A stretch of DNA of 61,579 bases, counting the filler, from Candidatus Woesearchaeota archaeon CG1_02_57_44 (GTDB lineage Archaea > Nanobdellota > Nanobdellia > Woesearchaeales > CG1-02-57-44): assembly GCA_001871415.1 (NCBI GenBank). It is 5 parts of 5 records of this genome, joined end to end, with 100 filler letters (N's around TTAATTAATTAA, not from the genome) between each part and the next. Parts side by side here need not be neighbours in the genome. Positions count along the whole stretch, not along the records: positions 1 to 28,595 come from MNWW01000037.1; 4 more parts are not named here. One strand, written 5' to 3'. A program made the position numbers. Position 1 is the stretch's first letter. Each line of letters opens with the position of its first letter. This document shows positions 9,001 to 12,000 of the stretch, in pieces.

Positions 9001-12000
9001 ACCAAGGAGCACATGAACATTGTGTTTATCGGTCACGTTGATCACGGCAAGTCCACGACAGTGGGCCGCCTGATGTTCGATTCAGGCAACGTCCCTGAAC
9101 AGGAGATGCGCAAGCTCAAGGATCTGGCCCAACAGCTGGGCAAAGGCGGCTTTGAGTTCGCGTTCGTCATGGACAATCTCAAGGAAGAGCGCGAGCGCGG
9201 CGTCACCATCGATCTCGCCCACAAGCGCTTTGAGACCCCGAAGTACTACTTCACGGTCATCGACGCCCCTGGCCACAGGGACTTTGTCAAGAACATGATC
9301 ACCGGCGCGTCACAAGCTGACGCAGGCGTCCTTGTCGTCTCCGCCAATATGAGCGATGGCGTACAGGCCCAGACCAAGGAGCACGTGTTCCTGTCAAGGA
9401 CCCTTGGCGTCAACCAGCTCATCATCGCGATCAACAAGATGGACATGGCCAAGTATGACGAGAAGCGCTTCAATGATGTCAAGACAGAAGTCACCGCGCT
9501 GCTCAAGACCGTTGGCTACAATCCTGAGAAGATCCAGTTCATACCAATCGCAGCACTTCCAGGAGACAATGTCTTCAAGAAGAGCGAGAACATGGCATGG
9601 TATACTGGCCCGAACCTGTACGAGGCCCTTGACAAGCTGGACCTGCCAGAGAAGCCGACCAATCTTCCGATGCGCCTGCCCATCCAGGATGTCTATAACA
9701 TCACGGGTATCGGCGTGGTTCCGGTCGGTCGTGTCGAGACTGGTATCATGAAGGTCGGCGACAAGGTCATCATCATCCCAGGAAGGGAAGGAAAGGGTGT
9801 CAATGCCGAAGTCAAGAGCATCGAGATGCACCACGAGCAGCTCACTGAGGCCAGGCCAGGAGATAACATCGGCTTTAACCTGCGTGGTGTCGGCAAGAAG
9901 GATATCGCCCGTGGCGATGTTATCGGCCATCCCGCGACCCCGCCAACACTGGCATCAGAATTCACGGCCCAGATGATTGTGCTCAACCACCCGAGCGTCA
10001 TCACGGTCGGCTACACGCCAGTGTTCCACATCCACACGGCACAGGTGGCATGCCAGGTTACCGCCATACTGAAGAAGCTGGATCCAAAGACAGGTCAAAC
10101 TGTCGCGGAGAACCCTGACTTCATCAAGAACGGTGACGCTGCCATCCTGACCATCAAGCCTATGCAGCCTCTGGTCATCGAGCGCCAGAAGGACATCCCG
10201 CACATGTCACGCTTCGCGGTCAGAGACTCTGGAACCACGGTCGCTGCCGGCATGTGCATCGATCTGGTGGAGAAGAAAATATAATTTTTTTATTTTCATA
10301 TACCATTCATGGCGAGCGTTTTTCTCGTCATGAGGTACACACGTGATGACCCATGCAAAAAGCGAGAATCAAAATAGCAAGCACTGACATCGAGAAGGTC
10401 AATCAGGTGTGTCAATACATCAAGGACATTTCTGATAAGACGGGCGTAGCAATGCGCGGCCCCATACCCCTGCCTACCAAGAAGCTCAAGATCACCACCA
10501 GGAAAAGCCCTGATGGAGAAGGTAGAGCAACCTGGGAACGCTATGAGATGCGCGTACACAAGCGCCTCATTGACCTGGGCATTGATGAGCGGGCCTTGCG
10601 CCTGGTCATGCGCGTGCAGATTCCAGAAGGCCTGAACATCGAGATTGAAATGATTGATGTATAGGTTTTACTTGTTTTTGCGCAAGAACTTTTAGAATTT
10701 TGAAACTACTTGAGAGTAGTATGCAATGTATAAGGAAGGTATAGCTAAAGACTTTTAACTGGAATTGACATTCCCGGGCATCCGAATGGCGAGCAATCTA
10801 CAGTACGCAGGTGACGAAGGCGCCTTATGGTACGCGGGCATCCTGGTAGGAGATTCATACACATTACGTAGCATCACCCCGCTTACTGAGCGGGAAGCAC
10901 GTACGTACAACGACCCTACGGTGTGGTTTCTCAGACCCAGCGCCACGGGATTTGACGGCATCACGCAACATTCGCTTCTACGGGGCTTGTCACCAGCCCC
11001 CATACAAATCAACACGTTCCAGGTGCCTGTCGATGAAGATACCCATGCTGAAGTGGGCCCTGAAGGGCTCACCTCACTTCTCGATGCGTTGGTTGCTGCG
11101 CAAGAAGCAGCAAAACAATAATAAGCAGTGGTTTCTTTTTTCAGGCCAATTGCAGTCTATAAGTTGTGCAGTAGCACAATTGTCTGGAAACAAGGGTCTG
11201 TAGTCTAGGACTGTGACACAAAAAATGACCTGGGAACAAGGGCCCGTAGTCTAGTGGCTATGACGCAAAGAAAAACCATGCAAGGGTCTGTAGTCTAGTG
11301 GCTATGACGTTGCCTTTACACGGCGAAGGTCGTCGGTTCGAGTCCGGCCAGACCCATGGTTTTTCTTGCGCGCGAAATCCCCTGGATTTCGCTGCGTTGC
11401 CTTTACATGCCAGGCTCTGCCTGGCGACCAGAAATGCACAGACATTTCTGTGCACGGCGAAGGTCTCCGGTTCGAGTCCGGACGGGCCCAGTTTTTAATC
11501 CATTCTGAAAGACCAGCCAGCTGAGCAAAGCGAACGCTGGCTTTGCTTTGAACGACCTTTACACAAAAGGTCGCCGGACGGGCCCAGGTCATTCTTGTGT
11601 ATGAACAACACAACACAATATTATGTCAGCCACCATGCAAAAGCCTTAAATGCAACGAGTTTCTTTTCAGGTCCATGCCAAAGTACTGCATCTCGCACAA
11701 CAGACCGGATTGCATCGGCTGCGGCGCGTGTGCGGCAATCGCGCCCAAGAAGTGGCACATGGACGACGAGGGCAAGAGCCATCTGGAAGGCTCGAGCACC
11801 AACGATGACGGTTGGGAGCTGCTGGACATAAGCGATGATGAATTCCAGGAGCAGATGGACGCCGCCGAGTCCTGCCCGGTCAATGTCATCCACATCAAGA
11901 ACCTTGCTGATAAGAAAGAATTGATTTGACCGCACTTCCTAGGTGATTCAATTTGTTCATTGTTTGTTAGCGGTGCTCAGTATAGCAGCTGCCTTCTCTC

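Follow-up and report, generated by a model that had tools for sequence, protein, structure and literature searches.

How does a complete tRNA gene come to lie inside another tRNA gene of the same specificity? The question is raised by a locus of Candidatus Woesearchaeota archaeon CG1_02_57_44 (GenBank assembly GCA_001871415.1), in which a whole tRNA-Val(UAC) gene is flanked by the two parts of another tRNA-Val(UAC) gene that can still be reconstructed (11240-11490, plus strand). The window, i.e., the whole stretch of DNA that was analysed, is 61,579 nucleotides long with its filler, and the locus lies on contig C10, which makes up positions 1-28,595 (MNWW01000037.1). A preliminary description read the arrangement as a gene in three exons whose first intron houses the second gene, and regarded this layout as inherited. 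The evidence assembled here points elsewhere. The arrangement recurs in tiny archaea, most likely as a self-rescuing insertion and not as a spliced intron; at this locus, a tRNA-carrying double-hairpin element probably split, and most likely replaced, the resident tRNA-Val(UAC) gene.

The nesting itself was re-derived at the same coordinates as in the preliminary description. Positions 1-26 of the outer tRNA occupy 11240-11265 (all features given here are on the plus strand) and end in a CG that proves to be duplicated. The 131-nt insert that follows (11266-11396) begins with the left arm (L, 11266-11283) of hairpin 1 of an inserted module; this arm is homologous to copies that carry no tRNA, and its last few bases, next to G1 of the inner gene, are unpaired. 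The inner tRNA-Val(UAC), intact and intron-less, spans 11284-11356 (ARAGORN; Rfam RF00005, 64.8 bits), and nothing other than tRNA rose above threshold in the Rfam scan of the locus. The right arm of hairpin 1 (T, 11357-11370) forms a duplex with L and ends in the middle CG. This trailer is followed by a second hairpin (H, 11371-11396; one bulged T, -17.1 kcal/mol), which belongs to the insert, ends in the second copy of the duplicated CG, and was absent from the preliminary description. The outer tRNA then resumes with positions 27-37, including the UAC anticodon (11397-11407), is interrupted by a 47-nt intron at 37/38 (11408-11454), and concludes with positions 38-73 (11455-11490). Removal of both the 131-nt insert and the 47-nt intron by script yields, as had been reported, a cloverleaf of 73 nt, Val(tac) according to ARAGORN, which departs from the inner gene at seven positions (4, 6, 49, 50, 65, 67, and 69), all in the acceptor and T stems. 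From the Val(CAC) gene of the same genome, the outer product differs at five positions and the inner gene at eight. The duplex of leader and trailer, at -19.4 kcal/mol, is the strongest among the 43 ARAGORN calls of the genome that were scored (a separate calculation for L:T gave -17.9 kcal/mol), and the nest region folds with a z of -7.0 against 100 shuffles.

A third and older layer, likewise missing from the preliminary description, surrounds the nest (11194-11239 with 11587-11606). It consists of what is left, in decayed form, of positions 1-26 of a former tRNA-Val host (11194-11218; over 28 nt, 89% identical to the 5' end of the inner gene, with one deletion), the left arm of a CA-type module (11219-11239), which pairs with 11586-11600 at -16.6 kcal/mol, and a right arm with the truncated start of the corresponding hairpin 2 (11587-11606), the full form of which is found on contig C4. 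Since these arms pair around the outer gene, that gene is in its turn enclosed by an older nest. Between the outer gene and the right arm lies a tRNA-linked repeat unit (11491-11586), composed of a hairpin element at about 11506-11573 and a 13-nt copy of the outer tRNA 3' end. A stretch of 154 nt that begins with the outer 3' piece is 87% identical to the region beginning at tRNA-Val(CAC) on contig C4, where the sequence continues through a right arm and a hairpin to a copy of positions 25-73 of the tRNA. Repeats linked to tRNAs, with copies of their 5' or 3' ends, are abundant in the source genome. According to a motif scan, the only TATA-like box near the nest, a putative promoter element at 11155-11163, stands 37 nt upstream of the outermost tRNA fragment, with no such box within 60 nt upstream of the inner gene; a TATA-like box precedes the outer piece in six of seven other nests checked as well. 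The gene that follows the nest is presumably ferredoxin-like.

A repeat-rich locus in a draft genome could have been misjoined from tRNA repeats during assembly. Three independent metagenome contigs are identical to the window over their whole fetched lengths (1400-2107 nt), which excludes misassembly, as had been concluded before, and the same architecture recurs with different sequences in other families; the probability of an artefact is close to nil.

Is the 131-nt insert an intron? Its removal restores a regular tRNA, and an insertion with a 2-bp duplication would give an equal result. The insert was scored for the eight pairs of the bulge-helix-bulge (BHB) motif in its hBHBh' form, in the registers that restore a tRNA (24/25 to 26/27). 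The preliminary description had conceded that no textbook BHB was shown here, and this is borne out: at most four of the eight pairs form in the source genome. The best scores in the other nests tested were 4/8 (G095, G026, and L051) and 5/8 (G290 and G404), such that the motif is missing from all six, and in none are both the outer helix and a central helix of 3-4 bp kept. Introns of plain relatives served as controls. The D-loop or 37/38 introns form 8/8 pairs in seven of seven cases (these genes may have further copies), while four T-loop introns, of the hBH type, form 5-6 of 8 with the outer helix and 3-4 central pairs kept; both helices are kept in all 11 control introns. BHB motifs in other registers, or a two-step removal of sub-modules, were considered and rejected, for the sole 4/4 helix found in all six nests restores no tRNA; that helix is hairpin 2, shifted by +2. 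A shifted splice that would yield Ala(UGC) or another anticodon is not conserved between the source genome and G095. Split, trans-spliced genes were rejected too, as the pieces lie in cis, no relaxed BHB occurs at the join, and an intact gene is present.

The 37/38 intron is a different matter. Plain Val genes of G005 and G095 have introns with which it can be aligned, which agrees with the preliminary description in treating it as real. It forms six of the eight BHB pairs in the source genome, compared with seven in the G095 outer gene and eight in the plain-gene homologues; going by this homology, it is possibly a true intron by descent, maybe a decaying one that has lost two BHB pairs. The source genome encodes one single-unit EndA and no paralogue. 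DPANN endonucleases of the alpha4 type may be laxer than classical ones, according to the sections consulted of a study of these enzymes (PMC5829648). The enzyme type alone is compatible with splicing, and it is the internal control introns that carry the argument.

If the outer gene were a functional three-exon tRNA-Val, EndA and RtcB would splice its first intron and thereby release the second tRNA, much as a C/D guide RNA is released from the tRNA-Trp intron. A clean 73-nt product with compensated stems is what this would produce, EndA is present, intron 2 belongs to a real intron family, and at 25/26 two nests reach the 5/8 pairs of the weakest T-loop controls. Against this, the insert of the source genome stays at or below 4/8, no nest keeps the two helices that all the control introns keep, outer genes decay in a large share of events (see below), and the outer gene would only duplicate the function of the inner one. 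Splicing of the outer tRNA is accordingly the less likely alternative, with perhaps one chance in ten; were it to occur, no earlier tRNA nested in a tRNA intron is known to us. Because the insert is free of a BHB in six of six nests and belongs to a dispersed family of DNA repeats, it is most likely, on comparative sequence grounds, no intron at all. For annotation, the locus is a warning that a clean in silico splice product does not prove an intron.

That repeat family came to light when DNA searches with the G290 and G095 loci returned arms without a tRNA in several places. In its tRNA-free state, the module is a double hairpin of 48-51 nt, composed of arm L, a short loop, arm T, and hairpin H. 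A pattern for it without tRNA matches in 26 of the 401 genomes of the order (Woesearchaeales, by the name used in the preliminary description), about six of which have a single match that looks like chance on reading, and a reversed control matches in none of the 401. Copy number reaches 22 matches (G142), and tRNA-free copies were also found in G409-G411 and on contig C19 of the source genome. A looser search gave 14 matches, 3 of them linked to a tRNA and 11 not, as judged by reading. Two scans of a viral collection yielded three and seven pattern matches, all of which appear to be chance. Modules of the double-hairpin family may also accumulate inside BHB introns.

The ends of the module are revealing. 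From 30 of 36 loci, 31 module copies could be parsed, one duplicate and five unparsed loci having been dropped. In 28 of these 31 copies, the module closes with the dinucleotide that also stands immediately to its left, a position outside the search pattern, and the left, middle, and right dinucleotides read CG-CG-CG in 13 copies and CA-TG-CA in 14. The CA form occurs in the L051 nest, where it matches A26 of the host. Five copies sit within a larger composite repeat, the empty junction of which is found at one mismatch or fewer in 50 of 401 genomes (47 without three unpublished genomes), as against 14 for the control. The flanks of the five filled copies align to empty versions of this repeat with scores of 74-98, whereas the shuffle maximum is 32-38. 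The agreement of the dinucleotides and the alignments of filled to empty sites together indicate that the module is an insertion that duplicates CR (R, purine). It is dispersed, multi-copy, and non-coding, with filled and empty sites and defined ends, as befits a non-autonomous hairpin repeat. As read from the aligned sites, the target is the boundary between a hairpin with TGAC-R at its end and the hairpin that follows, and the junction between the D arm and anticodon arm of tRNA-Val (TGAC-R, positions 25-26) has this form. A nest in a tRNA-Ser gene (G186:C65) uses another hairpin junction, and it ends in TG and not CA, against the duplication rule.

How widespread are such nests? A strict junction pattern matched in 2 of the 401 genomes of the order and at 5 loci among 185,579 GTDB genomes. 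In metagenomes it matched at eight loci, three of which are the source sequence, three are repeats of known loci, and two are a single new case (L051/L052). As the strict pattern misses variants such as G404, G412, and G186, these counts are lower bounds, and further nests were added by DNA searches and a looser pattern. At least 14 events were thus collected from eight genomes of five families and one metagenome lineage (L051). Eight are full nests (C10 of the source genome, G095:C21, G290:C57, G026:C30, G026:C17, G404:C39, L051, and G186:C65, the last being a tRNA-Ser(GGA) split between the variable arm and the T arm). Two are 5'-only forms, G290:C15 and G412:C54 (Val GAC), three are 3'-only forms, C4 of the source genome, G290:C37, and G334:C2 (Val CAC), and one is the older layer (layer 3) of C10. 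Host isoacceptors comprise Val UAC, CAC, and GAC as well as Ser GGA. The loci of G095 and G290 were re-read and share the layout as previously described. The proposal that it was inherited is not supported. Within one genus (g80; 13 genomes searched), Val(UAC) is nested in 1 and plain in 10 of the 11 genomes that show the gene. The gene contexts of the nests differ between genomes; for instance, the G095 nest adjoins a gene taken here to be ScpA-like, and those of G290 and L051 precede what is presumably a tRNA-Gly. A patchy distribution in a single genus, different contexts, and several isoacceptors argue for recurrence and not inheritance. The compensatory changes in the flanking helix, which had been offered in favor of inheritance, are a property of the repeat family; tRNA-free copies show them too.

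The condition of the outer genes varies. Those of the source genome, G095, G290:C57, and L051 retain the cloverleaf and are free of new stem mismatches. The G404 outer gene has an A49-C65 mismatch, and that of G026:C30 has C6-A67 and an altered D-loop (both read by eye) in addition to a T-loop insert without a BHB. G026:C17, G290:C37, G334, and layer 3 of the source genome are plainly decayed, bringing decayed outer genes to at least 6 of the 14 events. In the folded precursor, the outer acceptor stem forms with a probability of 0.75-1.0 per pair; given this and the four intact outer genes, the DNA alone fits both a recent insertion and selection on the outer gene. On balance, these comparisons suggest that the outer tRNA-Val gene of the source genome is probably dead, its apparent exons being relics, and that the inner gene is the likely working copy.

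Cargo and host agree in anticodon in all 10 cases in which both are visible. In sequence they differ at 0, 7, 10, 13, and 16 positions in five nests, which suggests that the cargo, usually different from its host, is most likely the copy of the same tRNA from another strain or species; the cargo of L051 is identical to the plain gene of G328. Cargo and host do not differ at all in G290:C57, and a local duplication fits that case as well. The cargo may hold introns of its own (G290 and G186), so that a mature tRNA need not be its source.

Could the nest instead have arisen from two separate local events, an upstream hairpin unit bringing a copy of positions 1-26 and a downstream unit bringing a copy of positions 25-73, with no cargo moved? 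The abundance in the source genome of repeats that copy tRNA ends is in keeping with this, as are the identity of outer and inner genes in G290:C57 and the existence of 5'-only and 3'-only forms, although the half forms are equally expected from deletion between direct repeats. What makes two events unlikely is that both flanks are the arms of one hairpin that exists intact without a tRNA, and that, in four of the five nests scored, the two outer pieces (5' and 3') agree with one another in sequence but do not match the inner gene.

The self-rescuing insertion can be set out as follows. The order carries DNA modules of about 50 nt, shaped as double hairpins, which insert at hairpin-hairpin junctions and duplicate CG or CA, as the filled and empty sites show. 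In the window, a module with a complete tRNA-Val(UAC) gene in the loop of its first hairpin occupies positions 25-26 of the resident gene. A bare module at 25/26 would destroy a single-copy tRNA gene, and so presumably only versions that carry the same anticodon survive. The resident promoter would then transcribe the whole nest, and the inner tRNA, freed by RNase P and RNase Z, would take over the function. Genes for RNase Z and for the RNase P RNA were found in all five genomes searched, and in every Val nest read, a short unpaired stretch of a few bases lies just upstream of the cargo 5' end. The outer halves, left unspliced, would lose selection and decay. A deletion between the two copies of positions 1-26 would leave the 3'-only form and one between the two copies of positions 27-73 the 5'-only form; a nest that underwent both would return to a plain gene. 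Since the outer gene of the source genome is itself the cargo of an older, CA-type insertion, two insertions would have taken place at this locus. As to how the cargo is acquired, the arm-tRNA-arm block may move as a unit, or the tRNA may be captured at a homologous locus, e.g., if a hairpin is cut at its tip and an intact allele serves for the repair. Freely mobile cargo might be expected to show some tRNA-carrying modules away from a host of the same anticodon; none was seen in the searched set, which leans toward capture at a homologous locus.

The candidate enzyme class preferred here is one that acts on folded single-stranded DNA. The source genome (82% complete) yielded no transposase, integrase, IS110, or reverse transcriptase gene. 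Among five genomes searched, the Y1 transposase (PF01797) occurs in two, with five matches, none of which has a module closer than about 1.5 kb, and the tyrosine recombinase (PF00589) in four, being absent from G000, with no module near its 10 matches in the four others. IS110 was found in none of the five and reverse transcriptase in two. GIY-YIG gave one match, a 504-aa protein presumed to be UvrC-like; there was no module near it, and no small single-domain GIY-YIG gene flanked by a hairpin repeat in the five genomes. A bolder proposal, that the modules are gene-less mobile DNA of an undescribed class that is moved by an unknown enzyme reading hairpin junctions in single-stranded DNA and that, by taking up an entire tRNA gene and substituting it for the resident one on the spot, shuttles tRNA alleles, with or without introns, between lineages, is put forward tentatively, the chances being roughly one in three. 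If true, tRNA genes of host-dependent ultra-small prokaryotes could be replaced, and their introns turned over, along this route.

No description of a tRNA gene within a tRNA gene, or of this module family, appeared in the full-text literature searched, which consists mostly of the main texts of non-subscription papers; DPANN supplements could hold cases. The one nested tRNA that came up in it is a tRNA-Sec inside selB (PMC8124441). How sequences enter archaeal tRNA genes is an open matter, and the portion consulted of a 2026 Asgard preprint reports no general route.

Among known systems, elements of the SSV or pNOB8 type resemble the nest in that insertion into a tRNA gene leaves a working tRNA and displaced fragments; in the sections of PMC3293823 that treat them, an encoded integrase acts and a partial copy repairs the gene at the att site. 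The nest, on the other hand, brings a complete gene, is flanked by both host halves, and lacks coding capacity, and neither an integrase nor a one-sided att duplicate is found at it. A scar of such a large integrative element, with an att site in tRNA-Val and its body since deleted, would draw on the fact that these elements duplicate tRNA ends in archaea, as the same sections state (PMC3293823). Yet here a whole gene is bracketed by duplicates of both tRNA ends, the repeat at the junction measures 2 bp, the inserts of the six nests are 120-181 nt long without a coding remnant, the arms belong to a non-tRNA repeat, and the two viral scans turned up no complete element that combines these arms with an integrase at tRNA-Val; a scar is very improbable.

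The archaeal tRNA-Trp BHB intron, which nests a box C/D guide RNA (PMC4090602; PMC5829648, in the parts consulted of both), is comparable as a functional RNA within an interrupted tRNA gene, and intron 2 is, by its homology, probably such an intron. Unlike it, the 131-nt insert has no BHB and belongs to a repeat family that is found outside tRNAs. The split tRNAs of Nanoarchaeum equitans, as the relevant section of PMC4090602 describes them, share pieces with a complementary leader and trailer, whereas in the nest an intact gene is present, the pieces lie in cis and have a single promoter-like box, and a relaxed BHB is missing from the join. The NTS/SRM repeats of Ssn nucleases are hairpin families too, recognised as single-stranded DNA in the passages that concern them (PMC11893778); the small GIY-YIG gene of those systems was not found in the five genomes searched.

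Also comparable are the REPINs and REP-BIMEs, mosaic hairpin repeats that, in the parts of the cited accounts consulted, are mobilised by RAYT (PMC3116915; for BIMEs, PMC11893778). Like them, the archaeal module is a small, non-coding, non-autonomous hairpin with inverted arms, dispersed, multi-copy, and stacked in mosaics. Unlike REPINs as portrayed there, it has no linked RAYT/Y1 transposase in the five genomes searched, consists of two fused hairpins that follow a CR-YG-CR rule (Y, pyrimidine) with a 2-bp duplication, and can accommodate an entire tRNA gene as well as integrate within tRNA genes. It is an insertion family with defined ends, a target rule, and empty sites, in which a life cycle of tRNA genes (nest, decay, and collapse) is visible, and it offers a testable substrate for enzyme discovery. 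The module can be counted as non-autonomous hairpin mobile DNA in the broad sense.

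In the genome of Candidatus Woesearchaeota archaeon CG1_02_57_44, many tRNA genes are followed by units of 80–190 nt, each of which comprises a spacer, a hairpin and a 10–17-nt copy of the 3′ end of the tRNA's own gene. Such 3′-end repeat units are found at C40:4045-4330 (C-numbers denote contigs), on C53 at the genes for tRNA-Gly(UCC), tRNA-Met and tRNA-Pro(GGG), on C44 at those for tRNA-Val(GAC) and tRNA-Leu(UAA), on C22 at tRNA-Arg(CCU), and in the window at 16811-16905, 3′ of tRNA-Ala(GGC). Behind tRNA-Ser(GGA), three of these units stand in tandem. The second hairpin of intron 2, the 47-nt 37/38 intron of the outer tRNA-Val(UAC) gene (11408-11454), is similar to one hairpin from these units. 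Copies of tRNA 5′ ends also occur: partial copies covering tRNA positions 1-12 or 1-13 lie 150–200 nt upstream of intact genes, separated from them by hairpin-rich DNA, on C22 (Ala CGC), C44 (Glu CUC) and C53 (Gln UUG).

Several tRNAs of this genome with apparent D-loop introns are miscalled by ARAGORN (C40:3693-3824, C22:11632-11750 and C26:32007-32106), and its Asp and Tyr tRNAs received no ARAGORN call at the default score; these are probably multi-intron genes. In the window, contigs C10, C13, C14 and C15 are joined via N spacers, from position 28596 onward. A tRNA pair, Asn-Ile, that lies at 41243-41422 of the window also occurs on contig C47.

The genes for EndA and RNase Z are divergent neighbours in all five genomes searched (C8:21444-22936 here). 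Among the relatives with nests, G290, the genome in which all three Val genes are hit, carries two reverse-transcriptase domains (C11:20018-20635 and C17:13426-14043). At the nest of G404 (L061, contig C39), a possible additional decayed layer lies roughly 30 nt upstream of the outer gene, and a motif scan found no TATA-like box within 60 nt upstream of this nest.

Double-hairpin modules are also present elsewhere in the relatives. Long T-loop (59/60) introns of a tRNA-Gln (L110, G293:C35) and a tRNA-Ser (L135, G240:C36) contain the module in reversed orientation, which indicates that apparent bulge-helix-bulge introns, too, are enlarged by such modules. The 3′-end repeat unit behind tRNA-Val(GAC) at L126 (G307:C10) holds stacked hairpin modules, the double-hairpin module among them. 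In G186, five matches (L088, L089, L092, L094 and L096) belong to a composite repeat that is about 200 nt long and has terminal inverted repeats; this repeat includes the L/T hairpin as well as some of the hairpin region known from the nest of G095.
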